A DNA stretch of 64,000 nucleotides from the NCBI GenBank assembly GCA_937922745.1, contig CALAJO010000005.1, positions 1,991 through 65,990 on the forward strand, read 5' to 3'. Each line of letters opens with the position of its first letter. Position 1 is the first letter of the stretch. This DNA is from an uncultured cyanobacterium. GTDB lineage: Bacteria > Cyanobacteriota > Vampirovibrionia > Vampirovibrionales > JAGQHJ01. Positions 4,238 through 44,830 of this stretch are shown one piece after another. The position numbers were made by a program, and so were the translations under genes. Under the pieces are notes generated by a model that saw nothing but the letters and a program-made list of their open reading frames with translations, searched no databases and was not told the DNA's origin.

Positions 4238-4309
4238 GGCGACATGGCCAAGTGGTAAGGCAGGAGTCTGCAAAACTCCCACTCCCCAGTTCGAATCTGG
4301 GTGTCGCCT
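4238..4309 (+). tRNA. tRNA-Cys (anticodon GCA)
   Basis: Cloverleaf traced by hand: acceptor GGCGACA/TGTCGCC, anticodon stem GGAGT/ACTCC with loop CTGCAAA (anticodon GCA), T-arm CCCAG-TTCGAATC-CTGGG. CCA is not encoded. Confidence 0.9.
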
Positions 4310-17973: not shown

Positions 17974-18009
17974 AAGCCGGGGTAGAAGACAGGACGAAAG
18001 CCCCTTAAA

Positions 18010-19851: not shown

Positions 19852-19910
19852 AAATTCACATTAAAATACCAAGCACATCACGCTTGCATAACCCTTGATG
19901 ATTTTACCTG

Positions 19911-22172
19911 ATGGTTGATCTCCCCCAACAGCATATTCTCTACGCCGGTGGACATAATGATCCGCTGTTCCTTTCGCACTTGGCACACTATGTCCAACGT
20001 CCCGGGCTTTGCCTGTATATCCAGTCGCCGAAGACCCGGCATAAAATAGAGAAGCTCAACCTGTTTTCCCCTGGGCAGTATCGTTTTTGCGGATTGCCGG
20101 AGGCCGGAACGGGACAGGCCCATTGGACACGCTGCAAACAGTTTGCGTTACAGCGCAGCAATACCTTGCAGCATTGGGATCCGGGGTTTTACGCGCTAAA
20201 GGATCCGGCGGTTGAGCTACGCAAGCCGTTTATCCGCTTTTTATCGCTGTCTCGGTTTAACGGGGAGCTGATGATGGTGGAGGCGCTGGCCGGGTTGATT
20301 GCCGGGCATCAAGCCAGTTCCAGCGAGCAGCACCAATATGTCCTCTTTACCGGTTTGCTCAGTCCGGCTGAGGTGCAAGCCCTGCTAGGCAACAAGCCCA
20401 ACGTGCAGGTAATCCTGTTGCCGCTGAATCCCAACGCTTCCCCCCATTTTTTGCATGTGGCGCTCAAACAGTTGGAAAGCGAATACCAGGCCGAGCATGC
20501 CGAAATCCTGAAAGACCCTTACGCAGATGATATCCTGGCGGCGTCTGAAGACCAGGAAGATGCGCTGTCTCACGCAGCCGGGGAACCGGCCCTGGTTCGA
20601 TTTTTCTCCGGTCTTAAGCGGCAGCCGAGAAAAACCGTCCTGGGCTTATTCCGGGAAGTTTACAGGGCCATGCGCCGGTTTTACCGTCATCAGGTCAAAC
20701 CGCTCCTGGCTTTTGCGCTCTCGCTGCTTTACCCTGTTGCCTGGCTGCTGGAAAAGGCAACCCGGCCGTTCCTGCTGCTTTACCGCAAGGCTTACCTGTT
20801 TGCCCGGCTGGAGGTGTATTACGGTAACCCGTGGATATACACGTTGTTGAGCCGAAAGGGATTGCAGCTCATTGTTTCCCTTCGCGGAAACTTCAGCCTG
20901 CCCGCGCTGTTCCAGAATGTGCAACTGCTGGTAAAAATGGAGCCGGAAGCCGCCATCGTTTTTTCCATCGGCAAGCCCAGCAACATCCCCGCCCGGCTGA
21001 AGGTTTTAAAGCCCGTGATCGAAAGGCTTCTGGTGGAGCGAAAGCGGGTCAAACTGATTGCCTTTATGGCCCACCTCGATGCGGATATCTATATGGACGT
21101 GCTGGGCCCGGCCGTGATGAACCATTTCCTCTTTTCCCTGCACCATGTGCCCTATTTGAGCCCATCCAAGGGCGGGGAGTACCAGACGTTCGATAAGGCG
21201 CTTTTCCCGGCAAACCAGGAGCGGATCGCGTCAGTCTTGGAAACCGGTTTGCCGCTGGAGGAGAAGATGTTACTCCTGAATGCCGCGGCGCAATACGGGC
21301 ACCTGAAGAAAACCGCCGTTTCCCTGAACCAGGTTTTTGCCTTCTTCCCCGGCCAGCATATCATCGGCACGTTGGACGTGCATTTTTTGACGATTTTGAG
21401 CCAACTCCGGAAACACCATCACCGGGATACCCGGATTCATGGCGTGCAGTTCGGGGTGGCAGCCCTGCGCGATTGCATGGACTGCCTGGACTTCGACACG
21501 TTTTTCGTCAGCGACGAGGCCGCGCAAGCAGTGTATGAAGCCGCCGGTTGTAATGCCGGACAATATCGCATTGTGGGCAACCCGGAGTGGGAAGCCCCGC
21601 TTTTGGCGGACAGCGCAAAAAACCCAATTGAGCGCTTTGATCAAGGATTTTGCGGCATGGTAGGCGTATTTACCCAACCCCTGGACGGAAGTGGCATGAG
21701 CTGCGAGGTGATGTTATTGGTTTACCAGGGGATTTTTGATTTCGCGGCACGGCACCCGGATATTGGCATCCTCATCAAGCCCCATTACCGGGATGACATC
21801 GCCCGCCTCAAAGCCATCATCCCGCCCCGAAACAACATCCTGCTGCTGGAAAGCCGGGTTGACAACACGCCCATCTTTCAAGGAATTGATGTAGCCGTTT
21901 CCTTCTTCTCTGCCGTCCTGCAATCGGCGCTTGCCAACGGTGTGCCCGCAGCGGCCTTTTGCGGCCCCCCGGAATTCCATCAGCTTTATAGCCAACTGGA
22001 ACAGCATGGCGGCCATTACGCCCCAGATTTGAACGATGCCATGGCTTGGCTGGAAACTTATTTTACCGATACGGCCTTGCAAGCGAAGTATAAGGCCAAG
22101 GCCAAAGCATATCAGTTAGCCTTGCTGGAAAACCTGCCTTCGACCCAGATCGTCAGCCACCTTTACAGTTGA
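19911..22172 (+). CDS. large GT-B-like putative glycosyl/phosphotransferase, paralog of the preceding gene
   Basis: Shares RIVGNPEWEAPL, an HG motif and a C-terminal GT-B-like core with 18010-19851. Confidence 0.5.
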   Translation: MVDLPQQHILYAGGHNDPLFLSHLAHYVQRPGLCLYIQSPKTRHKIEKLNLFSPGQYRFCGLPEAGTGQAHWTRCKQFALQRSNTLQHWDPGFYALKDPAVELRKPFIRFLSLSRFNGELMMVEALAGLIAGHQASSSEQHQYVLFTGLLSPAEVQALLGNKPNVQVILLPLNPNASPHFLHVALKQLESEYQAEHAEILKDPYADDILAASEDQEDALSHAAGEPALVRFFSGLKRQPRKTVLGLFREVYRAMRRFYRHQVKPLLAFALSLLYPVAWLLEKATRPFLLLYRKAYLFARLEVYYGNPWIYTLLSRKGLQLIVSLRGNFSLPALFQNVQLLVKMEPEAAIVFSIGKPSNIPARLKVLKPVIERLLVERKRVKLIAFMAHLDADIYMDVLGPAVMNHFLFSLHHVPYLSPSKGGEYQTFDKALFPANQERIASVLETGLPLEEKMLLLNAAAQYGHLKKTAVSLNQVFAFFPGQHIIGTLDVHFLTILSQLRKHHHRDTRIHGVQFGVAALRDCMDCLDFDTFFVSDEAAQAVYEAAGCNAGQYRIVGNPEWEAPLLADSAKNPIERFDQGFCGMVGVFTQPLDGSGMSCEVMLLVYQGIFDFAARHPDIGILIKPHYRDDIARLKAIIPPRNNILLLESRVDNTPIFQGIDVAVSFFSAVLQSALANGVPAAAFCGPPEFHQLYSQLEQHGGHYAPDLNDAMAWLETYFTDTALQAKYKAKAKAYQLALLENLPSTQIVSHLYS

Positions 22173-25624: not shown

Positions 25625-26725
25625 ATGAATAATCCCAAACCATTTCTGGACCAGTTATCAACCGGCGTCATGATTTTTAGCCTGGATGGGGACGGCACTT
25701 GGAGAGTATCCGAGTGCAACCCGGCCCTGGATGGCATCCGGGAAGGCTCGGCTGCGGAACTGAACGGCAAGCAGACCAAGGACTTTATCCAGGTTGATGC
25801 CAAGACCAATGCGCCGTTTTGCCAGGGCAAGCCCTTCAAGCCCCTGGAAAAGCTACCCATCCATACGGCGTTGTTTGAAACCGCCTCCCAGCAATGGGTG
25901 CGCGTTAAGGTAAAGTATGACTGGCTGGATGAGAAAACCATCCTGTTCTGGGTCGAGCCGTTCTCGGAAGATATGGCGCTTACGCAGGCCCACGCGGACT
26001 TTGTCAGCACGGTGAGCCATGAATTCAGGACACCGTTGACCAGCATTAAAGGCTTTGCGGATACGCTGCTCCGGTATGGCGCCAATCTGGATACCGAGCA
26101 GCAAAAGCGTTTTATCACCATCATCAAGCACCAGGCGGATCGCTTGACCCGACTGGTCGAGAACCTGTTAACCGTGTCCAAACTGGGCGCGCAGAAGACG
26201 CAGTTTATCTTCCGGCCGATCCCGCTGAAGCGTACGGTGGAGCGCATTGTGCAAAGCGTGGAAGGAAAGTTACCGGAGCCAAGGGTTTTCAAGATCAACA
26301 TTCCGGAAGATTTGCCGGAAGTGTGGGCTGACCCGGACAAGCTGGAACAGGTGCTGCTGAACCTGATTGATAACGCCGCCAAGTATTCCTACCCGGATAG
26401 CGAAGTGCGGGTAAAGGCCCAGTTGCATCCGGAGGATAATGACAAGATCAAGATAGACATTGAGGATCAAGGGGTTGGCATTCCGGAAGAGCATCTGCCA
26501 AATATCTTTAACAAGTTCTCTCGCATCGATAACCCCTTAACGCGTGAGGTAGAGGGCACCGGACTGGGGCTTTACATCACCAAGTCGCTGACCAACGCCA
26601 TGGGCGGCCAGATTTTTGTGCAAAGCGAAAACAAGAAGGGAACGACTTTTACCGTGGTTCTCCCGGTTGCCACGCCGGAGCGCCAAGCGGCAGCCCGCTT
26701 GAAGGATGAAGAGGAGGCCCTCTGA
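25625..26725 (+). CDS. sensor histidine kinase (PAS-HisKA-HATPase_c)
   Basis: H-box VSHEFRTPLTSIKGF, N/G1/G2 boxes (NLIDNAAKY...DQGVGIPEE...GTGLGL). Confidence 0.85.
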   Translation: MNNPKPFLDQLSTGVMIFSLDGDGTWRVSECNPALDGIREGSAAELNGKQTKDFIQVDAKTNAPFCQGKPFKPLEKLPIHTALFETASQQWVRVKVKYDWLDEKTILFWVEPFSEDMALTQAHADFVSTVSHEFRTPLTSIKGFADTLLRYGANLDTEQQKRFITIIKHQADRLTRLVENLLTVSKLGAQKTQFIFRPIPLKRTVERIVQSVEGKLPEPRVFKINIPEDLPEVWADPDKLEQVLLNLIDNAAKYSYPDSEVRVKAQLHPEDNDKIKIDIEDQGVGIPEEHLPNIFNKFSRIDNPLTREVEGTGLGLYITKSLTNAMGGQIFVQSENKKGTTFTVVLPVATPERQAAARLKDEEEAL

Positions 26726-28035
26726 TGACCTTCCAACTGGTTCAGATAATCGGGACGCCGCCCGCTGAACTGACCGAGGTGCTTCGCCAGGAGTTGAACC
26801 AGGAAGCCCTGGTTCAGGCCATTGAGATGAACACGATACAGGAGGCCAAGGAAAGCCTGCCCTCGCTGTTGCCGGACTTGGTGGTGTTATTCCTGGATTC
26901 GCTGGATGAGAACGCCGCCCTGTTTTGCCAGGAAGTGCGCGGCCAGATGACGGAACACCGTCCGATTATCGTGGTTTCCTCCGCGACGGCCAATAAAGAC
27001 CAACGGATTGAATACTTTTTAAGCGGCGCCGACGACTACCTGACGACGGATATTGAATCCGAAGAGTTTGCCGTCCGTCTCCTGGTTCACCTGCGCCGAA
27101 ACGTGGAATTGCTATCCAACAGCCAGACTCGCCTGCCCGGCTTGCCGCTGTTCTCCCGTCTGATCCAGCGAAAGATCAATCTGGAATTGCCCTGGGCGTT
27201 TCTGCTGGTTGAACTCAACAACTTTGCCGTCTACAACGAAGTGTACGGCAAAATCCCCAGCGAGCAGATCCTGAAAACGCTGGCGTCCCTGCTGAAGTCC
27301 ATTATCCTGCCGCCGGATATTGTGGGCCAGACGGACAGCGAGACCTTCCTGGTGCTGACATCGCCGGAAAAAGCCGAACGGATTGCCGAGCATATGTGCA
27401 GCCAGTTTGATGACGTTGTTTCCAACTTCTATTCCGACAAGGATCAGAAGCGCGGCTACCTGATTTCAGTCGTCAACGAGCAGATTAGCCAGCGTGTGCC
27501 CTTTGTGTGCCTTAGTATTGGGGTGGTTTCCAGCGAAAACCGTAATTTCCGAAATTATATGTCGGTGTTTAACAGCGCGCTGGAGATGAAAAACATTGCC
27601 AAAGGCAAGTACGGCAGCAATTGGGCCAGCGAGCGCTTGAAGCTGACCGGCAGCATCACGGCCGAGCCGGAGCGTGTCCGCCGCATCCTGATTGCCGAAG
27701 GCGATGCGGCCTTGGCCTTCCTGCTAAAAAGTACGCTTGAAATGCAGGGATACCAGATTGAAACCTGCATTAGCCACGAAGAAGCCCGCAGCTTTATGGA
27801 GCGCGAGTATTTCGATCTGCTGCTGGTCGATCCGCTCATCCACGGGGAAACCTGCGGCTGGGATCTCTGCGAGTGGGTTCGCCAGCAGGAAAACCTCAAG
27901 ATGATGCATATCATCTGCATCTCCAGCGTGCATGACCGTGAAACGGCGCTTGGCTCCGGGGCCGACTTGTACCTCCCCAAGCCGTTTGAACTTACCTCCC
28001 TGTTTACCTGGGTGGATAAATTTCTGAAACGTTAA
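26725..28035 (+). CDS. response regulator with pseudo-receiver, degenerate GGDEF-like domain and C-terminal receiver (REC*-GGDEF*-REC)
   Basis: ATG overlaps the kinase stop (TGATG). The middle domain aligns to GGDEF, but GGDEF is replaced by QTDSETF and DxDxFK by ELNNF. The C-terminal receiver is canonical (LLLVDPL...KP). The N-terminal receiver lacks the acidic pair and Lys. Confidence 0.75.
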   Translation: MTFQLVQIIGTPPAELTEVLRQELNQEALVQAIEMNTIQEAKESLPSLLPDLVVLFLDSLDENAALFCQEVRGQMTEHRPIIVVSSATANKDQRIEYFLSGADDYLTTDIESEEFAVRLLVHLRRNVELLSNSQTRLPGLPLFSRLIQRKINLELPWAFLLVELNNFAVYNEVYGKIPSEQILKTLASLLKSIILPPDIVGQTDSETFLVLTSPEKAERIAEHMCSQFDDVVSNFYSDKDQKRGYLISVVNEQISQRVPFVCLSIGVVSSENRNFRNYMSVFNSALEMKNIAKGKYGSNWASERLKLTGSITAEPERVRRILIAEGDAALAFLLKSTLEMQGYQIETCISHEEARSFMEREYFDLLLVDPLIHGETCGWDLCEWVRQQENLKMMHIICISSVHDRETALGSGADLYLPKPFELTSLFTWVDKFLKR

Positions 28036-28817: not shown

Positions 28818-28833
28818 TTTAAGACAAGGAAAA

Positions 28834-28852
28834 GGCTCCCAAGTCGGGAGCC
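28834..28852. terminator. hairpin GGCTCCC-aagtc-GGGAGCC between convergent pcm and threonine dehydratase genes
   Basis: Perfect 7-bp stem. The U-tract is only on the minus-strand reading (TTTTCCTT), so it may terminate the minus-strand operon. Confidence 0.3.
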
Positions 28853-29039
28853 CGATTAGTCCTTGATGTTGAGTTTGAGTACGGACTTAACATGTTCATG
28901 ATAAAAGCAGTTTCCCCGGAATCATCCAAAATCAAGGATGATTTAATCAGTATTAACTTTTGATTATCGAACGGGGATAAGGAACATCTCCAAGGCAAAT
29001 AACGGAGCCGGGACGAATGGGCTGAGGGGCCGGTCTGTT

Positions 29040-30071
29040 TCAGCCCGCCAGGATTTCAGCAAAGCGCTGCACATCCACATTGCCTCCGGAAAGCACCACG
29101 GCAACTATTTGACCTGAAGCCTTGATTTTTCCGGATAACACGGCGGCCAACGCCACAGCCCCACCCGGTTCCACCACCAGCTTCAGATGCTCGAAAGCAA
29201 ACCGCATGGCGGCTTTCACCTCGTCATCGGTCACGGCCAGGCCGCCATGGAGATGGTGGGCGTTAATCTGAAAAGTTAACCGGCCGGGCTCCGGCATCAT
29301 CAAGGCATCGCACATGGTTGTTGCGCCGGGTGCGTTTCGCTGGCGCTGTTTGGCTTGCAGCGACCGCGCCGTATCATCAAACCCCTCCGGTTCCACGGAA
29401 TAAATTTCCGTTTCGGGGCTCATGGCCTTAATGGCCAGTGCGCATCCGGCAATCAGGCCGCCGCCGCTGCATGGGGCGAGCAGCTTATCCAGTTTAATGT
29501 GTCTTGCATTGGCTTCTCTGTAAATTTCCATCCCCACGGTGCCTTGCCCGGCAATGGTGTACGGATGATCATAGGGGGGCAGCAAGGTGGCCCCGGATTC
29601 CTCCGCCAGGGCTTGCGCAATGGCTTCGCGGGATTCCGCTTGTCGATCGTACAGAACGACGGATGCGCCATAAGATTGAGTCTTCTCAATCTTAATTCTC
29701 GGGGCGTCGGACGGCATGACAATGGTTGCCGGAATATCGAACAATTGGGCGGCATAGGCCACGGCCTGTGCATGGTTACCGGAAGAGTAGGCTAATACGC
29801 CTCGCTGGCGGGTCTGGCGATCCAATTGGCTAATGAAATTGTACGCCCCGCGAAACTTAAACGAACCCGTCTTTTGCAAAACTTCCGGCTTCAGCAGGAT
29901 ATGCCCGCCGGTGATTTCATCCAGGCGCTCTGAGACCAGCAAGGGGGTTTGGATAATATGCCCTTCCAGGCGCTTCTCCGCCCGCAGGATATCGTCAAAG
30001 CTGGGCAGTGTCTCCGCTTCAATAAGATTCGACCCGGATGGTTTCATACTCTCCCCCGTACTTTTGCTCAT
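29040..30071 (-). CDS. catabolic-type threonine/serine dehydratase (fold-type II PLP enzyme, no ACT domain)
   Basis: PLP-lysine motif SFKFRGA and a Gly-rich loop. 343 aa without a regulatory C-terminal domain. Confidence 0.8.
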   Translation of the reverse strand: MSKSTGESMKPSGSNLIEAETLPSFDDILRAEKRLEGHIIQTPLLVSERLDEITGGHILLKPEVLQKTGSFKFRGAYNFISQLDRQTRQRGVLAYSSGNHAQAVAYAAQLFDIPATIVMPSDAPRIKIEKTQSYGASVVLYDRQAESREAIAQALAEESGATLLPPYDHPYTIAGQGTVGMEIYREANARHIKLDKLLAPCSGGGLIAGCALAIKAMSPETEIYSVEPEGFDDTARSLQAKQRQRNAPGATTMCDALMMPEPGRLTFQINAHHLHGGLAVTDDEVKAAMRFAFEHLKLVVEPGGAVALAAVLSGKIKASGQIVAVVLSGGNVDVQRFAEILAG

Positions 30072-31164
30072 ACATCACCCGCCGCTCGGCATTCTCATCA
30101 TCGTAGAAAAAGGAGAGCAGGGCAAAGCGTTTTCCTTGCGTCACGTCTGTCGCCTCATGCATCAACGAGCAGGAGAAGATGATGGCGCTGCCGGTTTCCG
30201 CCTGATACAGGTGCGGGCCATATTCAGGGAAGCGCAGGTAGCCGCCTTCGTATTCGCCTACGTTCAGGTTCAGCGTCATTGCAAACTGCCGATGGGCGGT
30301 TCCGCCGGAGGTGTTATCCCGGTGCTTGCGAAAATATCCACCGCGCGATCCGTCATAGCAGGCTATCTTGTAATCCTCCCTCCGGGAAAGTTCGACTTGA
30401 AACGCTTTCTGTACTTCCGGGAAAACCCGTCGCTTCATCAGCCGATCCAGCCGCACCTTCATATCACCTTCCTGGATGAAGTGATCCCGGCGGATTTTGA
30501 AGCTGTAATCGTAAACGCCGATGGTTTTATCCCCATCCGGGCGCATAAAGCCGGAGTCCTCGTTCCCCTCCGTTTCCCAAATGCGGATGAGTTCCTGGCA
30601 CATGGCCTGCGGCAACACGTTGGGAATAATAACAATGGGCGCGTGGGTATAATGCCGGATGATTTTGGTTTCAACAGGCGGGAAATAGGCTGCCAGATCC
30701 GCTGCGATTTCCGACTGGAAATCCTGCAAGTCCAGTAAGCGATAGATATTCAGGACGCGCAGATTTTCATCCAGCAAAAAGGCGCATCGCGCGTAGGTCA
30801 GGGTCGATTTTGACTGATCAGGGCTGGAAACGCCGCATACCCCGTAGCGCAGGCTGCATTCCTGATCCAGATCCGATAGAAGCGGATAGGGAATGTTATG
30901 GTGCAAGGCAAACTCGGCCCGTGCTTCGGGTGCATCCAGGCTAATCCCGTATGGATGGATATCATACTGCTGCCAAAGGGGCTTTAAATCGCGCATCAGG
31001 CAGGCCACTTCCTCGCAGGCCGGCAACGCATCCTTGGCGTAAAAGAAAAGCAATAACCGTGAGCCTGCTTTATCCCGCAACACCGTGGCTTTTCCGGTCT
31101 GGTCAGGCAGGTTGAACAGCGGGGCCGTATCGCCAACGGCAACAGTGCGGGTTGCAAATACCAT
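30019..31164 (-). CDS. fusion of AhpC/TSA (Bcp-like redoxin) N-terminal domain with a prolyl-4-hydroxylase-like 2OG-Fe(II) oxygenase
   Basis: N-terminal FFYAKDALPACEE aligns to the Bcp FYPKDxTPGCT motif, with Thr replaced by Leu. C-terminal HxD...H triad (KHRDNT...LMHEAT) plus Arg in a double-stranded beta-helix context. 3' end overlaps the dehydratase start by 53 nt. Confidence 0.7.
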   Translation of the reverse strand: MVFATRTVAVGDTAPLFNLPDQTGKATVLRDKAGSRLLLFFYAKDALPACEEVACLMRDLKPLWQQYDIHPYGISLDAPEARAEFALHHNIPYPLLSDLDQECSLRYGVCGVSSPDQSKSTLTYARCAFLLDENLRVLNIYRLLDLQDFQSEIAADLAAYFPPVETKIIRHYTHAPIVIIPNVLPQAMCQELIRIWETEGNEDSGFMRPDGDKTIGVYDYSFKIRRDHFIQEGDMKVRLDRLMKRRVFPEVQKAFQVELSRREDYKIACYDGSRGGYFRKHRDNTSGGTAHRQFAMTLNLNVGEYEGGYLRFPEYGPHLYQAETGSAIIFSCSLMHEATDVTQGKRFALLSFFYDDENAERRVMYEQKYGGEYETIRVESY

Positions 31165-31317
31165 CTTGATTCACCCTGTCTACTCCATTCCCTTCATCAT
31201 AGCAAACCTGCAAACATCGGCTTATCCAATATGGAAACGATTTTGAGAACGAACCCGCGGGATTGCGAAAACCCGTATTAAGATGAGAACAAGTGCTGTT
31301 TTGCAAGGGCGAAAACC

Positions 31318-33885
31318 ATGCCGCAGACCCATCCTTCATTGCAAGAAATATATCATCATATCCTGTTAGGTCGGGTGGACTTGGCGCGGCAACAATGCGA
31401 AGCCCTGATCAGTCAAAGCCAGGACCTGGAAGAAGCGCACACATTGCTTGGCCTGATTGACGCGGAGAGCAACCAGCCTGAAAAAGCCGCTGAGAATTTA
31501 TTGCGCGCATTGCTGGCGTCCTCGCAGACGCCGGAGTCCCTCAAGCAAATCGGGCTGACCTGCTTACGACAGAAGAAACCAGGTTTGGCAATCGCTTTTT
31601 TCGAGAAAACCCTGCGCAGCAACCCTCGCCAGCCGGACGTATGGATATGGCTGGGCCAAGCGCACACGATGCAAGGCACGATCGAGCGGGCGCAGCAAAG
31701 CTTTGCCCAAGCCATCCAGTTTGCCCCCAACCATCCGGATGGCTATTCGCAACTGGCGCTGATTTTCCAAAAAACCGGCAAGCTGCAGGAAGCGTTAGCC
31801 CTGTATGAAAAGGGGTTGCCATTGGCGCCACGCAACGCGGATATCCTTTGCAACTATGCCCTGGCACTTCACCAGGCCGGGCAGGTAGACAAGGCCGAGG
31901 CCGTTTGCCGTGACGCCCTTCGCATCAACCCGAGCAGCCTGGAAGCGTATCTGAACCTGGGGGTTATATTGGCGAGCCGACGGCAGTTTGATGACGCCCA
32001 CCAGGCTTTTGCCGAAGCGATTAAAATGAACCCGACTCACCCGCAGGCCATGCTCAGCATGGGGAACATCCTGCTGGAAAAGCAGCAGTACCGGGACGCG
32101 CTGGGCTGGTACGAAAAACTGCTGCCGGTTATTCCAAACAACCCCGACCTGATGATCAACATGGGCATGGCCTGTAAGCATCTCGGGGAAATGGACAGGG
32201 CGGAGGCATGTTTCCGGAAAGCCATCTCGCTCAATCCCCAGAAATCGGAAGCCTATTATAACCTGGGCCTTTTGTATCGCCTCAAGGACGACTTTGGGCA
32301 GGCGTTTAAGATGTATCAACTGGCTGTCAAGCACAATCCCCGGCACGCGGCATCCTGGAATAACCTGGGATTGATTTACAGCGATCAGATACTGGATATT
32401 GCCGAAGCCCACCGCTGTTACCAGAAGGCCATCGAAGCCAATCCCCAACTGCCGGAAGCCTTCAACAACCTGGCGGACTCCCTGTTAAACCTCAACCGGC
32501 CCGAAGAAGCCCTCACTGCGTATCAGCGATCTCTCGCCCTGAAACCCCGGGATGAGATTCGGGTGAAGGAAGCGGTTGCCATTCCCCGGTTTTACCAAAC
32601 AGTGGAGGAAATCCAGCATTGGCGCAACCGGGCTATGGACTCGGTCAAAGCCTTACGGCAGGAAAAGCTGAATTTGACCAATCCGGTGGATATTGGCGCG
32701 CCCACGTTTTTCTGGGCCTACCACGGCCTGGGCAACTACGAAATCCAGCATGAGCTGGGACAATTGTTCGCTGACAACATCCCCCTGCACAGCGTGGTTC
32801 ATCCGCGCAATAAGACGCCTCGAATCGGCTTTATTTCCCGGTATTTTATGCCCACGCACACCATTGCAAAGGTCTTTTTCGGTTTAATTGAGCAGTTGGC
32901 CCGTCAGCAATTCGATATCGTGGTGTTTAACATCGGGCATACCCAACCGCTACCGATTAACGCTCCCTTCCAGCAGGTGAACCTGGGCGTGAGCAGCCTG
33001 GAAAAAGCCATGGAAGCAGTTGAAAACGCACAATTGGATCTCCTTTGCTACACGGATTTGGGCATGGATCCGCTGACCTATTTTCTGTCCTTCCACCGGC
33101 TGGCCCGGGTGCAGTGTGTAACCTGGGGACACCCGGAAACATCCGGCAGCCCCAACGTGGATTACTACATTTCCACTCGGCTGTTTGAGACGGAAGCCAG
33201 CCCCAAAGCGTATACGGAAACCCTGATCCGGATGGATACCGTGCCCACGTATTACCCCCGGCCGGAACCCATCCAGGAACGTTTGACGGCAGAGGACTTC
33301 GGCTACCGCAGCCAGGATCGCCTTTATTTATGCCCGCAGTCCTTGTTTAAATTCCATCCGGATTTCGATGATATCCTGGGGAATTTGCTGCGGGCAGACC
33401 CGCAAGGGCAGTTGGTCCTGGCCAATGCCGCGTATAAAATCTGGACACCTATGCTGGAGAACCGACTGAAAACCAAGCTCCCGGATGTGGCCGATCGGAT
33501 CCGCATCCTGGACAATATGCCTTACGATCGCTTTTTGAATCTGCTTAATATTGCCCACGTCATGATTGATACGCTTCACTTTGGTGGCGGCAGCACCACT
33601 TATGAGGCCCTCTCGCTGGGAACGCCGATTGTCACTCTGCCCACCCAATTCCTTCGCGGACGGATGGCGTATGGGCTGTATCAGAAAATCGGAGTGACGG
33701 ACGCCATTGCCGACACCGCCGACGCCTATGTGGAAAAGGCCGTCGCAATCGCCACCCAGCCGGATTACCGCCAGGAACTGTCCGAACGAATCAAGGCCAA
33801 CCATGACGTGCTGTACTCCGAGCAAGCCGCCGTGGACGAAATGGCTCGCCTGTTTATGGAGCTGATTGAACGCCACACCGAATAA
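31318..33885 (+). CDS. TPR-repeat glycosyltransferase family 41 protein (OGT-like)
   Basis: Ten or more TPR units in the N-terminal half. The C-terminal half has GT41 signatures (IGFISRYFMPTH..., VTWGHPETSG..., LYLCPQSLFKFHPDFD). Confidence 0.8.
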   Translation: MPQTHPSLQEIYHHILLGRVDLARQQCEALISQSQDLEEAHTLLGLIDAESNQPEKAAENLLRALLASSQTPESLKQIGLTCLRQKKPGLAIAFFEKTLRSNPRQPDVWIWLGQAHTMQGTIERAQQSFAQAIQFAPNHPDGYSQLALIFQKTGKLQEALALYEKGLPLAPRNADILCNYALALHQAGQVDKAEAVCRDALRINPSSLEAYLNLGVILASRRQFDDAHQAFAEAIKMNPTHPQAMLSMGNILLEKQQYRDALGWYEKLLPVIPNNPDLMINMGMACKHLGEMDRAEACFRKAISLNPQKSEAYYNLGLLYRLKDDFGQAFKMYQLAVKHNPRHAASWNNLGLIYSDQILDIAEAHRCYQKAIEANPQLPEAFNNLADSLLNLNRPEEALTAYQRSLALKPRDEIRVKEAVAIPRFYQTVEEIQHWRNRAMDSVKALRQEKLNLTNPVDIGAPTFFWAYHGLGNYEIQHELGQLFADNIPLHSVVHPRNKTPRIGFISRYFMPTHTIAKVFFGLIEQLARQQFDIVVFNIGHTQPLPINAPFQQVNLGVSSLEKAMEAVENAQLDLLCYTDLGMDPLTYFLSFHRLARVQCVTWGHPETSGSPNVDYYISTRLFETEASPKAYTETLIRMDTVPTYYPRPEPIQERLTAEDFGYRSQDRLYLCPQSLFKFHPDFDDILGNLLRADPQGQLVLANAAYKIWTPMLENRLKTKLPDVADRIRILDNMPYDRFLNLLNIAHVMIDTLHFGGGSTTYEALSLGTPIVTLPTQFLRGRMAYGLYQKIGVTDAIADTADAYVEKAVAIATQPDYRQELSERIKANHDVLYSEQAAVDEMARLFMELIERHTE

Positions 33886-33949
33886 TCCCTTTATATAGGG
33901 GATTTTGAATTTTTCCGCTTGGATACAATGAGGGGATGGAGTGATTTGC

Positions 33950-34780
33950 ATGAGCATTAGTATTATCAAGCGCAGTGTCAAAAGCCTGACCGATCCCAGG
34001 GAGCTTTATCTGGATCTGATGAAACGCTGCCTGCTGAACCTGATCTACCTGGACGAAACCAATATGCTGAACGACAACGGCTATGTTTTAGACGAGGCCA
34101 CCGGGAAATACGTGTTCGTTAAAGGGGTGCCGTTTACCATGGAGCAAAAGCTCACCGGGCAAATGTGGCCTTCCAAGGCGCACACCATGATCGGCATCCA
34201 TCGCCTGGATAACCTCCAGGAATGCGTCAAGCACGTTATCGAAAACCACGTGCCCGGCGATCTCGTTGAAACCGGGGTTTGGCGCGGTGGCGCAACCATC
34301 CTCATGCGGGCCATTCTACAGGCTTATGGCGACACAACCCGAAAAGTATGGGCCGCCGACTCGTTTGAGGGATTGCCCGAGACCGACCTGGAGCGATACC
34401 CGGTTGATCAAAAGCATGGCGTCCTCAACAAGGTCAACATCCTTGCCGTATCGCTGGAAGAAGTGCAATCCAACTTTGCCCGTTACGGCCTGCTGGATGA
34501 TCAGGTCCGGTTTCTCAAGGGGTGGTTTAAGGATACGCTGCCCCATGCGCCAATCGACCGGATTGCCGTTTTGCGCCTGGACGGCGATTATTATGAGTCC
34601 ACCATGGATGCCCTGAAAGCCCTTTACCACAAGGTTTCAAAAGGCGGCTTCGTCATTGTGGACGATTACAAGCTGGAAGGTTGCCATACGGCCATTAACG
34701 ACTTTCGCAAAGCGAACAATATCTTCGAGCCCATGCAGGCCATCGATTCCGATGCGGTTTTCTGGCAAAAGGCCGGTTAA
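33950..34780 (+). CDS. TylF/MycF-family (macrocin-type) O-methyltransferase
   Basis: PGDLVETGVWRGGA SAM motif and metal-binding LRLDGDYYEST. RBS AGGGGATGGAG upstream of ATG 33950. Confidence 0.75.
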   Translation: MSISIIKRSVKSLTDPRELYLDLMKRCLLNLIYLDETNMLNDNGYVLDEATGKYVFVKGVPFTMEQKLTGQMWPSKAHTMIGIHRLDNLQECVKHVIENHVPGDLVETGVWRGGATILMRAILQAYGDTTRKVWAADSFEGLPETDLERYPVDQKHGVLNKVNILAVSLEEVQSNFARYGLLDDQVRFLKGWFKDTLPHAPIDRIAVLRLDGDYYESTMDALKALYHKVSKGGFVIVDDYKLEGCHTAINDFRKANNIFEPMQAIDSDAVFWQKAG

Positions 34781-35112
34781 GCGGAAACCGGCGTATACCA
34801 GTTAAACGACTTGGCCCAATCCTTGACCGCTTCGCGGTTGGATTCCTGCATCGTTTTGGTCGCCTCAAGCATGGCGCGCTCTTTTTCCAGCTCCAGCACA
34901 AGGCCTTTCTCATACGTCACCAGGTTTTGCTTGATGGTATCCAGCAAAGACGATTCCACAGTGCCGGGCATCACATTGGTTGCCTGTACCGCGATTCGGC
35001 CGGCCGCGGCCTGTACCTGAAGTAAATTTTCCTGTAGCTGAGAGATCTTTTGCGTTGAATTCGATCGACGTGCTGTATACAGCATGTCAAAGCCCACCGC
35101 ACTTCCACCCAT
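34777..35112 (-). CDS. small helical hypothetical protein
   Basis: ATG preceded by GGAGG at 5 nt. No family recognised. Confidence 0.4.
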   Translation of the reverse strand: MGGSAVGFDMLYTARRSNSTQKISQLQENLLQVQAAAGRIAVQATNVMPGTVESSLLDTIKQNLVTYEKGLVLELEKERAMLEATKTMQESNREAVKDWAKSFNWYTPVSA

Positions 35113-35241
35113 AGAAGCCTCCACACACTAAAAATTCAAATTAACCCAACACTGTTATAAAACCGCGCAACTGCAAACTTGTTGACAGCCTTTATAAATT
35201 CATCAGATTTGGGTGGAGGATTTCCATCCTTCAGGCTTTGG

Positions 35242-35511
35242 TTACATCAAGCCCTTCACGAAATTCTTGATCTTCTGGCGGCGGGTGATTTTTTGCCCGG
35301 TAAACGGGTTAAGCCCTTTTTGCGTCGCATTATGATAGTAATCCATGTTATGGAAACCTACTTTTTGCTCATATTTTTTGACCATAGGGCCACTGGCACC
35401 GCTAATGCCGTTAGGATTTTGCTGCTTGTCACGCCCGAACAGCTTAAAGGCCGAAGCGTCCTGCGGAATGAGCATCATTCCCACCAGGAATAAGGGCAAT
35501 AACCGTTTCAT
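35242..35511 (-). CDS. small secreted hypothetical protein
   Basis: Strong RBS AAAGGAGGAG and a clear signal peptide (MKRLLPLFLVGMMLIPQDASA). Confidence 0.5.
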   Translation of the reverse strand: MKRLLPLFLVGMMLIPQDASAFKLFGRDKQQNPNGISGASGPMVKKYEQKVGFHNMDYYHNATQKGLNPFTGQKITRRQKIKNFVKGLM

Positions 35512-35684
35512 CTCTATACTCCTCCTTTAGCCGTTATCCTTATTGTGCCGACAGATCCCCCCAGGGCGCATCCTGAGTATGGTGTATCCTCGCCTCAAAT
35601 CCGCCGTTAAGGCCGGTTTACCTCAAATTGATAATGGCTGAAGGCTGTGGTATGGTTTTGCTACCGATAGGTTCAGGTTCCTCC

Positions 35685-36665
35685 ATGACAAAGTTGATCA
35701 TTCAAATCCCGTGCTATAACGAGGAAAAAACGCTTGGGACGACATTAATGGCCTTGCCGCGAAGTGTTCCCGGTGTGGATGTTGTGGAATGGCTCATAAT
35801 TAACGATGGCAGCTCGGATCGGACGATAGAAACCGCCCTGGAATATGGCGTCGATCATATTGTTGACCTGAAGTTTAACCAGGGCTTGGCCAAGGCGTTT
35901 ATGGCCGGCGTGGATGCCTGCCTGAAAAATGGCGCCGATATCATTGTGAATACCGATGCGGATAACCAGTATTTCGCCGGGGATATTCCCAAGCTCATCC
36001 AGCCGATTCTGGATGGGCAAGCCCAAATTGTGATCGGCTCCCGGCCCATCAGCCAGATTGCGCATTTTTCGCCGCTCAAGAAATTGTTGCAGAAAGTGGG
36101 CAGCAGCGTCGTCCGGCTCGCCAGCAATACGGAAATCGAGGACGCCCCCAGCGGGTTCCGCGCCATGAGTCGGGATGCCGCGATGCGCCTCAACGTGTTC
36201 GATGATTATACCTATACATTGGAAACCATTATTCAGGCCGGGCAAAAGGGGATGGCCATCATGTCCGTGCCCATCCGCACCAACCCGGATTTACGACCAT
36301 CCCGCCTGGTGAAAAGTATTTTTTCCTACGTCCGCCGGTCGATGACGACCATTATGCACATCTACCTCACTTATAAGCCCCGCCGATTATTTAACGTCTT
36401 AGGTACAATACCCTTTACAATGGGTGTATTACTTGGCGTTCGCTGGCTGGCGCTATATTTTGGCGGCACGACGCGCTCCCATGTGCCCTCGCTGGTGCTG
36501 GCCGCCATCCTGATCCTGATGGGCGTCCAGCTCTGGATCTTTAGCCTGGCTGCGTACCTGACGGAAGTGAACCGCAAGATCCTGGAAGACATCCAACTGC
36601 GGCTGCGTAAGCAGGACTATGACAAGGCACTGGCTTCTGAAAAGCAAGCCCTATGGGTCGACTGA
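35685..36665 (+). CDS. GT2-family polyprenyl-phosphate sugar synthase (DPM1/GtrB/ArnC-like) with C-terminal TM anchor
   Basis: IQIPCYNEE...INDGSSD...NTDADNQY (DxD) and two C-terminal TM helices. Confidence 0.8.
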   Translation: MTKLIIQIPCYNEEKTLGTTLMALPRSVPGVDVVEWLIINDGSSDRTIETALEYGVDHIVDLKFNQGLAKAFMAGVDACLKNGADIIVNTDADNQYFAGDIPKLIQPILDGQAQIVIGSRPISQIAHFSPLKKLLQKVGSSVVRLASNTEIEDAPSGFRAMSRDAAMRLNVFDDYTYTLETIIQAGQKGMAIMSVPIRTNPDLRPSRLVKSIFSYVRRSMTTIMHIYLTYKPRRLFNVLGTIPFTMGVLLGVRWLALYFGGTTRSHVPSLVLAAILILMGVQLWIFSLAAYLTEVNRKILEDIQLRLRKQDYDKALASEKQALWVD

Positions 36666-38305
36666 GCGGCATGTCCACCTTGGCCGGCAGTACGATAACC
36701 ACTCCGGATCAGTCGCTTCGGCACATCCTGGCCTCTGAAGCCCTGGCCCAAATTCCAAAAATCCTGACCTTGCAAGATCGTAATCCGCACAGCCCAACCT
36801 ATGGCTGCTTCGATCGAAACTTCTGGCATTACAAAATCATCGATTTCCCCAGCGGGATGGCCCAGGAGTTTGTATGGCCACTGGCCTTGGCTTACGCTCT
36901 GGATTGTCCGGATAACCGCTTTTACCAGGCACCCCGGATTAAGGAGTGGGTTGAGGCCGGGATTCGGTTTGCCGCCCGCTCCGCCCACTTTGATGGATCG
37001 TGCGATGACTACTTCCCGTTCGAAAAAGCGGCGGGGGCTGCGGCATTCTCGCTGCTCGCCTGTATGGAAGCCTATCGCCTGCTGAGCCTGGATGCGCCGG
37101 ATCTGCTGGATTTCTTTGCCCGCCGTTCGGATTGGCTGGCCGATCACCAGGAGAGCGGCAGGCTCTCCAACCACCAGGCGCTTATTGCCCTATGCCTTCA
37201 TGTGGCGGGTCAATTGCTGTCCACTACACGCTGGGACGACGCAAAAGCCCGGCGGATTGCACAAGTCTTATCCTGGCAAAGCGAGGAGGGCTGGTTCCAG
37301 GAATATGAGGGCTGCGATCCCGGCTACCATACATTGACGATATCCTGCCTGGCCCGGTTGTACCAATCCCAGCCCTCGCCGGAGCTGCAATCGGCACTCA
37401 CTAAAGCGGTTCGGCTTGCTACCCTGTTTATGCACCCGGATGGCAGTTATGGCGGCGAATATACCAGTCGGAATACGTATAACTACTTCCCCCATGGGTT
37501 TGAACTGGTGGGCCGGTGGCTGCCGGAAGCATTGGCCCTGAATACACATTTCCTCAAGGGATTAGCCAATGGCCGTGGGGCTTGCTATGCCGATGATCAC
37601 ATACTGGGCCATCACGCCTGGAACTATCTGCTGGCCTGGCAGGATTACCAAGCCGACCGGCCCAGTGATAACAGTTTGCCCCAAGGCCGCTTTCATCTGA
37701 AGGAAGCCGGATTGCTGATCGACCGGCAGGAAGGGTGTGCGTTGTTTTTGGCGCTTAACAAGGGCGGGGCGTTCAAGTTCTTTAAAAATGGCCAACTGGT
37801 GGCGTCCGATACGCAGTTTTCCTTTCAAGTTCGGCAGGGCGGCAAGTTAAGGAACGCCGTCGCGCACCTGGTGGATCGATACGCGGTTGATATTGCCGAT
37901 GACGTGTTCACGATTCAAGGGCAGTTCGGCTGGGCCAAGCAAAAGCAGATGACGCCCCTTAACCTGATGATCCTGCGTGTGGTGATGCTGACACTAGGCC
38001 GGTTCAATCCGGACTTGATCCGCCGGTTGCTTCAGAAGATGCTGATTACCGGCAAGCAATCCGCCCCGTTTGGCTTCGTTCGTCAAATAACGCTTCGTGA
38101 TGATCAGCTTGTGGTTCGGGACACCCTGACCGCTGAAAATTGGGATACGGTTGAATCCGCCGCCATCGGTTGCGATCAGACCTCCATTTATGTCGTGATG
38201 AGCCGGACGTTCCAGCAAGGGCAGCTTCAGCCGTGGGTTGATCTGACGGCACAAGTCAGACAGCTTCGCCAAGGGGAGCCGTTGGTTGTCGAGCGGGCTT
38301 ACTAG
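36653..38305 (+). CDS. hypothetical protein, (alpha/alpha)-toroid-like (heparinase II/III- or six-hairpin-glycosidase-like)
   Basis: Repeated aromatic/Gly hairpin motifs (SEEGWFQEYEG, HPDGSYGGEY). Start overlaps the GT2 stop. The fold call is inferred from sequence alone and is weak. Confidence 0.45.
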   Translation: MGRLSGMSTLAGSTITTPDQSLRHILASEALAQIPKILTLQDRNPHSPTYGCFDRNFWHYKIIDFPSGMAQEFVWPLALAYALDCPDNRFYQAPRIKEWVEAGIRFAARSAHFDGSCDDYFPFEKAAGAAAFSLLACMEAYRLLSLDAPDLLDFFARRSDWLADHQESGRLSNHQALIALCLHVAGQLLSTTRWDDAKARRIAQVLSWQSEEGWFQEYEGCDPGYHTLTISCLARLYQSQPSPELQSALTKAVRLATLFMHPDGSYGGEYTSRNTYNYFPHGFELVGRWLPEALALNTHFLKGLANGRGACYADDHILGHHAWNYLLAWQDYQADRPSDNSLPQGRFHLKEAGLLIDRQEGCALFLALNKGGAFKFFKNGQLVASDTQFSFQVRQGGKLRNAVAHLVDRYAVDIADDVFTIQGQFGWAKQKQMTPLNLMILRVVMLTLGRFNPDLIRRLLQKMLITGKQSAPFGFVRQITLRDDQLVVRDTLTAENWDTVESAAIGCDQTSIYVVMSRTFQQGQLQPWVDLTAQVRQLRQGEPLVVERAY

Positions 38306-38306
38306 G

Positions 38307-39284
38307 ATGAAAAAGCTGCTCTCGCTCCTGGTCAGTCTGGTCATTCTGTCCATCATCTATACCCGTATCCCCATGGCGCAACTGCTTTCGGTCTTCCAGA
38401 GCAGTAACCCGTTTTGGATGGTCATCAGCCTGGGCATGTTCATCCCGCTAACGCTCCTCACCTCCTGGCGCTTGCTGTGGCTTGCCCCAACCAGCGCGGA
38501 TCTTGGCCTGGCGGAATCCACCCGGCTAACGCTGCAAGCCAGCGTCCTTAACATGGTGTTGCCCTCCAAAATGGGCGATATCATCAAGGCGGTCTTTATG
38601 GCCGATCGCGGCCATATTTCCCGTTCGCTGGCTCTGTCGATCGTGGTGTTCGAAAAGGCCTGCGACATGCTTTCGCTGCTGGTATGGTGCTTGGGCGCGT
38701 TGCTGCTTTACCCCAATAAGGGGCAAGGCCTTGGCTGGCTAACGCTGATGATTGCCTTGATGTTTTTTCTGGGCGTCTTTCTCTTGGCCTCCAGAGGCTT
38801 TGCTAAGAGCTTCTTTGCCTTGGCTTCCCAACTCGCCCCCGGCAAAATCGGAGCCAAGCTGGGCAGCCTGAAGGCATCTTGGGCCGAGATGCAGGCCTAC
38901 TTCTGGGGAAATCGTGCCCGGCTATTCAAAGTGAGCCTGCTTTCCATTTTAATCTGGCTGATGCATCTCCTCCAGATCTGGTTGTTTGTTCTCGCGTTGA
39001 ATGCCTGGGTGCCGTTTTCGGCGAACCTGGCGCTGGCGCCGTTGGCCATTTTAGCTGGCTTGCTCCCACTCACCTTTGCCGGCGTCGGAACGCGTGATGC
39101 AGCCATTATCAGCCTATATAGCGCTTACCTCGCACCTTCCGCCGCTGCGGCCTTGGGATTGCTCTGTACATCGCGCTATTTGCTACCCGCGTTGGCCGGC
39201 CTTCCCTTTATCCGCCTGGAACAGCTCTCCTTCACCCGCTCCCCCCATCTGCCAATTGAGGCGAATTTAAGCCATCCCAATTGA
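38307..39284 (+). CDS. flippase-like integral membrane protein (UPF0104 / lysyl-PG-synthase TM-region family)
   Basis: Eight predicted TM helices and sequence typical of UPF0104. Such proteins are commonly paired with GT2 Dol-P-sugar-synthase-like enzymes. Confidence 0.7.
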   Translation: MKKLLSLLVSLVILSIIYTRIPMAQLLSVFQSSNPFWMVISLGMFIPLTLLTSWRLLWLAPTSADLGLAESTRLTLQASVLNMVLPSKMGDIIKAVFMADRGHISRSLALSIVVFEKACDMLSLLVWCLGALLLYPNKGQGLGWLTLMIALMFFLGVFLLASRGFAKSFFALASQLAPGKIGAKLGSLKASWAEMQAYFWGNRARLFKVSLLSILIWLMHLLQIWLFVLALNAWVPFSANLALAPLAILAGLLPLTFAGVGTRDAAIISLYSAYLAPSAAAALGLLCTSRYLLPALAGLPFIRLEQLSFTRSPHLPIEANLSHPN

Positions 39285-44419: not shown

Positions 44420-44830
44420 CTTCGTACTGCTCCGTTTGTTTCTAAATACAATTATAGAGGGTAACGAAACTCTTGTCTAGCTGTATACGAGCGTTTTACG
44501 GGCTTTTGCTAAGGATCCTTAACAAATCCGTGAATCATGCATCCGTAGTTTATAACGGTTTGATATCGCTGGTGATGTCTCACAATTCATTTTGTTTTGT
44601 GCTATATTAGGTTGGCTCAATCAAATGGGCCAAACGCCTTCAACGATTTTTTTATGGATTCAAACTTGATCCGGGCAACCGGATGAAGCCATCGAAGAAG
44701 GTTACCGGCTGGTGCATGGCGTAAGGCCAACGAACCATGTCAGGGCGGGAACGCAGCAGCATTAAGTTGTACCCTGCGGGTATGTGTCCATCCGGTAACT
44801 GGAGATGGTTTTGTCTGTCAATCTGGTCTT

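Follow-up and report, generated by a model that had tools for sequence, protein, structure and literature searches.

A 64,000-nucleotide stretch of contig CALAJO010000005.1 (assembly GCA_937922745.1, positions 1,991 to 65,990 of the forward strand; hereafter the window), from an uncultured cyanobacterium of the Vampirovibrionales, encodes a 381-amino acid (aa) protein that joins a thioredoxin-fold domain to a 2-oxoglutarate (2OG)/Fe(II) oxygenase domain. We propose that this fusion is a bacterial protein-type hydroxylase with a decayed domain derived from peroxiredoxins (Prx) of the PrxQ/BCP type, and that its product is probably glycosylated; taken as a whole, this reading stands at about even chances. 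Its parts are not equally firm. The protein very probably has 2OG hydroxylase activity and a Prx-like domain that is not peroxidatic, the prediction that it acts on a protein substrate is modestly favored, and the prediction that the hydroxylated product becomes glycosylated is tentative. In the proposed reaction the enzyme would decarboxylate 2OG with O2 and hydroxylate a side chain, most probably that of a prolyl or lysyl residue of a protein and not a free metabolite. The new hydroxyl would then be the acceptor for a transferase, typically a glycosyltransferase, and the pseudo-peroxiredoxin domain would be a docking or regulatory module and not a peroxidase.

The fusion open reading frame (ORF) is real and not a chance reading, as indicated by database records, more than 1200 homologues and the confidence of its structural model. 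An identical 381-aa protein is on record in NCBI, ENA and Logan, and a protein search with the fusion returned 1281 matches, with the two-domain architecture present in all of the best 120. AlphaFold2, run with a 43-sequence alignment, modelled the protein with a predicted local distance difference test (pLDDT) score of 94 and a predicted template modelling score (pTM) of 0.87, indicating that both domains belong to a single, confidently predicted unit. An earlier note on this DNA, made from its letters alone, had described a Bcp-like thioredoxin fold followed by an oxygenase resembling prolyl 4-hydroxylases (P4H). Both assignments were borne out by the structure comparisons with Foldseek given below and by Pfam, in which AhpC-TSA matches residues 10–137 with 75 bits (cutoff 26; E 4.9e-21) and 2OG-FeII_Oxy_3 (PF13640) matches residues 266–354 with 45 bits (cutoff 27; E 2.2e-11).

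The C-terminal domain carries a complete catalytic set. The HRD...H motif that the earlier note had pointed out is present as H281-R282-D283 and H336, and the 2OG-binding R346 accompanies it (Table 1). In an alignment of 240 non-identical members, on which all family residue statistics given here are based, these four catalytic residues (H281, D283, H336 and R346) are invariant (240/240), as are Y270, R292, K223 and R225; C189 is kept in 98% of the members and C332 in 90%. Foldseek placed the domain next to PHD2-HIF peptide complexes and to the P4H of Pseudomonas putida (PPHD) bound to EF-Tu, with template modelling (TM) scores of about 0.68–0.70 over about 200–210 residues. PHD2 (EGLN1) and PPHD, the closest structural neighbors, belong to the same Pfam clan (PF13640) and share with the fusion the HxD...H triad and an Arg for the 2OG C5-carboxylate about 10 residues past the distal His. 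However, their sequence similarity to the fusion is marginal (phmmer E 0.01–0.1), they have no Prx-like domain, and their substrates are HIF and EF-Tu, of which HIF is absent in bacteria.

Searching solved structures with a profile of the C-terminal domain only retrieved the Shewanella PKHD-type hydroxylase Sbal_3634 (3dkq; 6e-8), the mimivirus L230 lysyl hydroxylase (2e-7), PiuC (2e-6) and human LH3 (2e-5). Sbal_3634 and PiuC/YbiX are thus the best sequence-level relatives with solved structures, E values for these ranging from 6e-8 to 2e-6. PiuC differs from the fusion in having no Prx-like domain, and its genes sit with siderophore receptors; in the portions of the PiuC literature that we found, its own biochemical function is unsettled. 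The fusion falls outside the PiuC/YbiX equivalog (NCBIfam PRK05467), with a best score of 33.3 bits against 143 (model cutoffs 143–336). A comparison of the profile with a PHD2 sequence aligned the core alone, at 13 bits, and was not used for residue-level claims. The domain thus forms a branch of its own within the P4H-type clan. The nearest characterized relatives of the domain act on protein side chains.

The N-terminal domain keeps its fold, but the PxxxTxxC/Arg site of peroxiredoxins is not kept family-wide. Foldseek aligned the domain with PrxQ/BCP structures at TM scores of 0.82–0.89; its pLDDT is 96–98, and G34, F41, D98, G108 and N134 are conserved. Alignment to Mycobacterium tuberculosis BcpB (FFYAKDALPACEEVAC in the window protein, FFYPAAMTPGCTKEAC in BcpB) demonstrated that the peroxidatic Cys50, the Cys55 at the +5 resolving position and the active-site Arg126 are all retained. 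The active-site motif itself reads FYAKDALPAC and departs from PxxxT/SxxC. The earlier note had stated that the Cys is kept and that the conserved Thr of TxxC is replaced by Leu; both statements are correct (Leu47), and the Pro is lost as well (Ala43). The protein scores 74.4 bits on the NCBIfam thiol peroxidase model NF006960 (cutoff 140) and 57 bits on the PrxQ model NF053650 (cutoff 260). Across the family, Cys and Arg are each retained in 55% of the members, the +5 Cys in 21%, Thr/Ser in 11% and Pro in 7%. Cys and Arg occur together in 116 of the 240 members and Cys, Arg and Thr/Ser together in just 9, while Cys, Arg, Thr/Ser and Pro are all missing in 81 (34%). Because the site has decayed throughout the family and the fold has been retained, we regard the domain as a pseudo-peroxiredoxin, kept for a role other than peroxide removal.

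These residues also bear on a different explanation, a bifunctional antioxidant in which an active PrxQ-type domain would remove peroxide arising from uncoupled oxygenase turnover or reduce a hydroperoxide product. The window protein resembles PrxQ/BCP in its fold, Cys50, Cys55 and Arg126, nearly half of the family keeps both Cys and Arg, and fusions of a Prx with a second redox enzyme exist, e.g. the peroxiredoxin-nitroreductase of Thermotoga maritima (4eo3). In 4eo3, however, the partner domain is unrelated to the oxygenase of the fusion and the Prx domain is catalytically intact, unlike the pseudo-Prx described here. The loss of Thr/Ser and Pro from most of the family, Leu47 and Ala43 in the window protein itself and the score far below the thiol peroxidase cutoff all speak against peroxidase activity. 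A degenerate domain of this kind is also fused to a GT60-type transferase with no oxygenase present, which argues for a non-redox role. We therefore consider an antioxidant enzyme very unlikely.

Cys50, Cys55 and Arg126 are kept together in a minority class of 43 of the 240 members, the window protein included. In this class a thiol/disulfide switch is conceivable, and the redox state of the Cys50-Cys55 pair may gate activity; alternatively, the Prx-derived domain may dock the target. A different explanation is an O2/redox sensor, i.e. a PHD-like hydroxylase controlled by the Cys50-Cys55 disulfide that modifies a regulatory or translational protein (compare Pseudomonas PPHD on EF-Tu) with no glycosylation involved. 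The fold, which is closest to PHD2 and to PPHD bound to EF-Tu, is in line with this, as are the dithiol kept in these 43 members and the position of OmpR-type regulators or response regulator-histidine kinase (RR-HK) pairs upstream of the fusion in several cyanobacterial lineages. However, the Cys pair is missing from most of the family and therefore cannot be its general mechanism, no such regulator adjoins the fusion in the window, and the fusions with GT60 and GT4 described below would be left unexplained. A sensor of this kind seems quite unlikely to us.

The fusion is a further member of a catalogued yet uncharacterized bacterial family. Relatives were found in at least 596 genomes when one genome per species was scanned, a metagenome scan added at least 578 more, and an exhaustive profile search yielded 1034 clusters at 50% identity (E up to 1e-30). 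The earlier note had called the fusion architecture unusual, a view that these numbers contradict, as it is among the commoner uncharacterized two-domain architectures in cyanobacteria. Most members are cyanobacterial (Lyngbya, Limnoraphis, Arthrospira, Okeania, Trichodesmium, Planktothrix, Microcoleus, Nostoc, Leptolyngbya, Elainella and Pseudanabaenaceae). The others, Alphaproteobacteria among them, come from Sphingomonadales, Rhodospirillales, Kordiimonas, the planctomycete groups Phycisphaerae and Isosphaeraceae, and Pseudomonas carbonaria. No other member exceeds 57% identity to the window protein. Databases name these proteins 'redoxin domain-containing protein', 'alkyl hydroperoxide reductase' or, in IMG, 'peroxiredoxin/predicted 2-oxoglutarate/Fe(II)-dependent dioxygenase YbiX'. 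Our literature search (covering the fusion, AhpC-TSA with 2OG-FeII_Oxy, cyanobacterial Prx inventories, PiuC/YbiX and bacterial Gnt1/PhyA fusions) found no description of the family, and a 2012 census of cyanobacterial Prx does not mention an oxygenase fusion.

The suggestion that hydroxylation is followed by glycosylation comes from proteins in which the two-domain module is itself fused to a glycosyltransferase. Among the best 150 representatives, long proteins of five divergent bacterial lineages (P0282, P0328, P0358, P0351 and P0294/P0392; 785–997 aa, mutually 34–57% identical) share an architecture of a PF11397 (GT60-like) GlcNAc-transferase, an AhpC-TSA-like domain and a 2OG oxygenase, and four of the five, all but P0351, have a second 2OG oxygenase domain. 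Their contigs are clearly bacterial: one carries LexA, SulA, ImuB, ABC transporters and, three genes from the fusion, a protein with tetratricopeptide repeats (TPR), SEC-C and a sulfotransferase, and another carries a ChlB-like gene, T2SSE, Omp85 and, immediately preceding the fusion, a GT2 gene. In the reverse search, at least 10 of 120 bacterial PF11397 proteins had a fused AhpC-TSA-like domain and 3 of 120 had PF13640; several, of 450–530 aa, carry the Prx-like domain without an oxygenase. Many others, of about 520 aa, have a C-terminal class I methyltransferase (P0427, P0445, P0447, P0450 and others), and one, P0504, has a sulfotransferase. For the GT60-like domain no solved structure or curated family was found.

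Two further fusions involve other transferases. In Egbenema sp. FJBBOT/2019 (CP182236.1; L038:8013-10895) a 960-aa ORF consists of the Prx-like domain, the 2OG oxygenase, about 200 aa of acidic, low-complexity linker and a GT4 (PF12000 and PF00534). At L054:3231-5737 this GT4 (67% identical) is encoded on its own, immediately after the fusion gene. In P0289, a 388-aa variant, a GNAT acetyltransferase domain replaces the Prx-like domain. Together, the GT60, GT4 and GNAT fusions link the module to group-transfer enzymes and especially to glycosyltransferases. As a separate observation, the conserved cyanobacterial GT4 (70–75% identical across genera) is fused in P0154, P0185 and P0237 to a parvulin-type peptidyl-prolyl isomerase (PF00639), another proline-directed partner of this transferase.

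The logic of the GT60 and GT4 fusions is shared by LH3 (PLOD3) and mimivirus L230, which likewise combine a hydroxylase with a glycosyltransferase and attach sugar to the hydroxyl just formed. They differ in having unrelated glycosyltransferase domains and no Prx-like domain. Their substrate is collagen, modified in the secretory pathway or in a virus, whereas the window shows no collagen-like substrate. A second parallel is the protist Skp1 pathway, in which the product of a cytoplasmic P4H-type oxygenase, the prolyl 4-hydroxylase PhyA, is glycosylated by the GT60 hydroxyproline GlcNAc-transferase Gnt1; in the bacterial relatives of the module, a PF11397/GT60-type domain is covalently attached. 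The likeness has its bounds, as the window contains a GT41 and not a GT60, bacteria have no Skp1/SCF and the oxygenase is not a PhyA ortholog. One could envisage an undescribed bacterial system of cytoplasmic hydroxylation and subsequent O-glycosylation, parallel to and possibly evolutionarily connected with protist PhyA/Gnt1, with its arms fused or split and the Prx-derived domain docking the target or gating activity. Some lineages would have fused arms (GT60-Prx-like-oxygenase-oxygenase or Prx-like-oxygenase-GT4), and in the window they would be split into the fusion, a TPR-GT41 and a TylF sugar O-methyltransferase. Stated in this full form, the proposal is rather improbable.

The GT41 gene diverges from the fusion gene, and the 153-bp gap between them and the 855-aa, OGT-like nature of its product, both given in the earlier note, were confirmed. 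The protein matches TPR families with up to 196 bits and Glyco_transf_41 (PF13844) with 42.9 bits (cutoff 25), the latter at model positions 377–526 alone. Its relatives in the Protein Data Bank (PDB), with E values from 3e-15 to 1e-8, are NGT/HMW1C-like enzymes, XcOGT, SPINDLY and human OGT, all of them protein glycosyltransferases. This divergent, cytoplasmic TPR-GT41, followed by the TylF methyltransferase, would be the candidate transferase of the window, in a pairing specific to the source genome. A hydroxylase, a protein glycosyltransferase and a methyltransferase at one locus are consistent with the fusions seen at the level of the family. That the window GT41 is the partner of the fusion is nevertheless doubtful, as the basis is a single genome. 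The idea put forward in the earlier note, protein hydroxylation followed by GT41 glycosylation in the manner of Skp1, was therefore upheld in part: the GT60 fusions in five lineages and the GT4 fusion in one support a hydroxylation-glycosylation link, but the link to GT41 is not conserved.

On its other side, the fusion overlaps a gene for a pyridoxal phosphate (PLP) enzyme. With the gene-caller start the overlap is 53 nt, as previously noted, and the corresponding 343-aa product is in public collections; an ATG at 30047, preceded by a Shine-Dalgarno-like GGGGGAGAG that is better than that of the longer start, would reduce it to 29 nt. The enzyme matches Pfam PALP with 263 bits, is of the short type lacking an ACT regulatory domain, and has the PLP Lys72 within SFKFRG, SSGNH from residue 96 and SGGGL at 202. 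Its closest PDB match is the serine racemase of Schizosaccharomyces pombe (1v71, 4.6e-74), and its best NCBIfam model is threo-3-hydroxy-L-aspartate (T3HA) ammonia-lyase (368.8 bits, cutoff 452). A specific equivalog was sought among the NCBIfam models, including T3HA ammonia-lyase, TdcB and IlvA, and all were below cutoff. The annotation of the earlier note, a catabolic-type threonine/serine dehydratase, thus fits with respect to the short form without a regulatory domain, but not with respect to any specific equivalog.

The overlapping, co-directional pair recurs in one other locus, L082 (P0011), where identity is 57% for the fusion and 59% for the PLP enzyme and the genes overlap by a 4-nt ATGA. 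L082 and the window share no other genes and their fusions are not obvious sisters. At L156 the fusion directly adjoins a convergent PLP homologue of 42% identity. When the closest relatives (P0002, P0003, P0004, P0005, P0007 and P0011) were checked, the PLP gene was found solely at P0011. Our context survey comprised 169 other two-domain loci, 141 of them with at least 1 kb of downstream sequence, which suffices to judge the pair, and 132 with at least 1 kb of upstream sequence; the co-directional pair was absent from the other loci. The pairing of the fusion with the PLP gene is therefore real, rare and lineage-restricted. Co-transcription of the two genes is likely: the overlap, the recurrence in L082 and a terminator-like hairpin between the PLP gene and a convergent PCMT gene together make an operon the better supported arrangement, and the PLP enzyme would be co-expressed with the hydroxylase in the source lineage.

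This arrangement underlies the main rival to a protein hydroxylase, namely a small-molecule pathway in which the oxygenase hydroxylates a free amino acid (e.g. Asp or Asn at C3) and the translationally coupled PLP enzyme dehydrates and deaminates the resulting beta-hydroxy amino acid to a 2-oxo acid. The overlap, its recurrence in L082 in an otherwise different setting, the convergent homologue in L156 and a T3HA ammonia-lyase as the best curated model all agree with it. However, the pair is absent from the other loci and therefore cannot explain the family, the PLP enzyme is under all NCBIfam cutoffs and equally close to serine racemases, and the fold and profile neighbors of the oxygenase are protein hydroxylases. 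Known free-amino-acid hydroxylases fall in other 2OG-oxygenase families (clavaminate-synthase/TauD-like and PhyH-like), which also weighs against this rival. Amino-acid hydroxylation coupled to deamination, which the earlier note had raised, thus receives weak support from the recurrence in L082 and is offset by its absence elsewhere; as an account of the fusion we find it unlikely.

Several observations weigh against a hydroxylase whose protein product is glycosylated. The fusion-PLP operon, conserved in L082, fits a small-molecule substrate better. PHD2 and the lysyl hydroxylases are such distant relatives (E 1e-5 to 1e-8, or fold alone) that they do not reveal specificity for Pro or Lys. 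Among the two-domain loci surveyed, only the window has a GT41 catalytic domain beside the fusion. Of 170 two-domain loci, about 5 have an adjacent transferase gene, a figure close to and no higher than that expected from the background density of glycosyltransferases. Neighbor conservation was examined in 80 genomes, by clustering their 989 flanking ORFs all against all and by Pfam searches on 74 upstream and 79 downstream neighbors; only clade-specific synteny and no family-wide partner was found in these genomes. The GT4 of L038 is elsewhere a highly conserved standalone enzyme of housekeeping type, even at 91% identity, so its fusion may be a recent accident. That PF11397 is the Pfam family to which Gnt1, the GlcNAc-transferase acting on the hydroxyproline of Skp1, belongs is presumptive. 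Gnt1 is a hydroxyproline-specific GT60 enzyme (PMC6939170), and GT60 also holds Ser/Thr-directed enzymes (PMC8724618). No GT60 domain was found in the window or beside any two-domain locus, so the pairing of a PhyA-like P4H with a Gnt1-like GT60 is not seen there.

The variation of context across the family and the uniqueness of the GT41 adjacency would also be expected if the neighbors were coincidental, with the fusion working alone, the GT41 belonging with the TylF, GT2 and LPG_synthase_TM glycan genes further downstream, and the PLP gene merely packed against the fusion. Scanning the 153-bp spacer for sigma-70-type promoters, terminators and repeats revealed no consensus and nothing notable above background, i.e. 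no detected promoter-like or shared regulatory element, and the base composition of the fusion and its neighbor genes is ordinary. The genes at 35628-39284 form an apparent operon for a glycan or lipid-linked sugar cluster, whose tie to the fusion is uncertain; in L070 an ortholog of its GT2 (35628-36665; 68% identical) is two genes away from the fusion, and in L038 an ortholog of its LPG_synthase_TM protein (52% identical) is found at a distance of 4.5 kb. Coincidence does not, however, readily account for the overlapping PLP pair in L082, which in the absence of other synteny is unlikely by chance, nor for the fusion of the module to two unrelated glycosyltransferase families, which means that a transferase link exists somewhere in the family. 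We consider coincidental neighbors a minority explanation, though one to be taken seriously.

If a protein hydroxylase with a glycosylated product is the correct reading, the family would be the sign of a post-translational modification that is common in bacteria and resembles the glycosylation of hydroxyproline or hydroxylysine, which has been described mostly in eukaryotes and giant viruses. It would also offer a way into the bacterial relatives of the Skp1 GlcNAc-transferase. The peroxiredoxin-type names of the family are probably wrong, as the peroxidase site has decayed and the hydroxylase is the conserved and presumably functional part; renaming would touch thousands of annotations as well as counts of cyanobacterial 'peroxiredoxins'. 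Cyanobacteria that form blooms and mats, such as Microcoleus, Arthrospira, Trichodesmium, Lyngbya and Nostoc, carry the family abundantly, and the co-substrates of the enzyme would be O2 and 2OG, the latter a central carbon/nitrogen signal of cyanobacteria.

Table 1 Features of the fusion locus and of related GT60 fusions. Positions refer to the window unless a locus is named.
Feature	Position	Strand	Basis or remark
Pseudo-peroxiredoxin/2OG-Fe(II) hydroxylase fusion gene, 381 aa	30019-31164	(-)	ORF; Pfam AhpC-TSA and 2OG-FeII_Oxy_3; 1281 homologues; AlphaFold2
N-terminal PrxQ/BCP-like thioredoxin-fold domain, about residues 10–160	30685-31137	(-)	Foldseek; BcpB alignment; family statistics
Cys50 codon	31015-31017	(-)	Peroxidatic position
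Cys55 codon	31000-31002	(-)	+5 resolving position
Arg126 codon	30787-30789	(-)	Prx active-site Arg
C-terminal double-stranded beta-helix 2OG/Fe(II) oxygenase domain, about residues 170–366	30067-30657	(-)	Foldseek; profile matches; 240-member alignment
H281	30322-30324	(-)	Fe(II) ligand
D283	30316-30318	(-)	Fe(II) ligand
H336	30157-30159	(-)	Fe(II) ligand
R346	30127-30129	(-)	2OG-binding Arg
Overlap of fusion 3' end and PLP gene start	30019-30071	(-)	Sequence; 53 nt, or 29 nt with ATG at 30047
Fold-type II PLP enzyme gene, 343 aa, serine racemase/hydroxy-amino-acid dehydratase type	29040-30071	(-)	Pfam PALP
Terminator-like hairpin downstream of PLP gene, 9-bp stem and T-rich tail	28833-28853	(-)	Consensus scan only
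Divergent intergenic region between fusion and TPR-GT41 genes, 153 bp	31165-31317		Sequence
TPR-GT41 protein gene, 855 aa	31318-33885	(+)	Pfam TPR families and Glyco_transf_41
TylF-family O-methyltransferase gene, directly downstream of GT41	33941-34780	(+)	Pfam TylF, 344 bits
Three overlapping genes: GT2 (35628-36665), 550-aa ORF without Pfam match (36653-38305), LPG_synthase_TM-family membrane protein (38286-39284)	35628-39284	(+)	
GT60 fusion P0328	L171:8001-10991		
GT60 fusion P0351	L176:10001-12358		GT2 gene directly upstream
GT60 fusion P0392	L173:10001-12994		

The clade-specific neighbors of the fusion include Ycf66 and a trypsin-like peptidase in Microcoleus, S-adenosylmethionine synthetase in Lyngbya and Limnoraphis, and two-component systems in several lineages. 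Orthologous OmpR-type response regulators, 74–84% identical, lie directly upstream on the same strand at L038:6890-7567, L059:6693-7394, L063:7081-7755 and L169:3959-4675, the last with a divergent CHASE3 histidine kinase alongside, and a second RR-HK pair, 73–96% identical, precedes the fusion in L014, L015 and L057. In loci of the Microcoleus vaginatus type, a double-GNAT gene is directly upstream (L083:4854-5822, L084:1299-2267 and L167:1-156). An apparent recurrence of GT41 in the Rhodospirillales loci L072 and L080 was rejected, as the match is to the TPR region alone and the catalytic domain there is a sulfotransferase. Such proteins with TPR and Sulfotransfer_3 occur near the module at L072:782-2743(-), L080:749-2722(-), L173:15745-17667(-) and L175:7968-9863(-); their genes are the divergent neighbors of the two-domain fusion in two Rhodospirillales metagenome-assembled genomes and three genes from a GT60 fusion elsewhere.

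The gene content and best matches of the window look cyanobacterial, although Pfam matches of ten large ORFs were not diagnostic, and the fusion locus is ordinary for a genome of this kind. Elsewhere in the window, the longest ORF of the TylF gene is 279 aa, with a GTG start, and this product is absent from the public protein collection; the public gene call is 276 aa, so the start codon differs from that call. Between the TylF and GT2 genes are two small ORFs without a Pfam match, 34777-35124(-) of 115 aa and 35242-35511(-) of 89 aa, the latter opening with a signal-peptide-like MKRLLPLFLVGMMLIPQDASA. The region 15718-22172 encodes a 751-aa RTX calcium-binding repeat protein followed by two ORFs (613 and 753 aa) that have no Pfam match. 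The gene at 26725-28035 overlaps the stop of an upstream histidine-kinase gene (25625-26725) and encodes a 436-aa protein that has a receiver domain at its C-terminus and a weak, partial GGDEF match (positions 21–115 of 161). Rfam matches in the window are limited to a tRNA gene at 4238-4309 and a bacterial small signal recognition particle RNA at 44703-44800.

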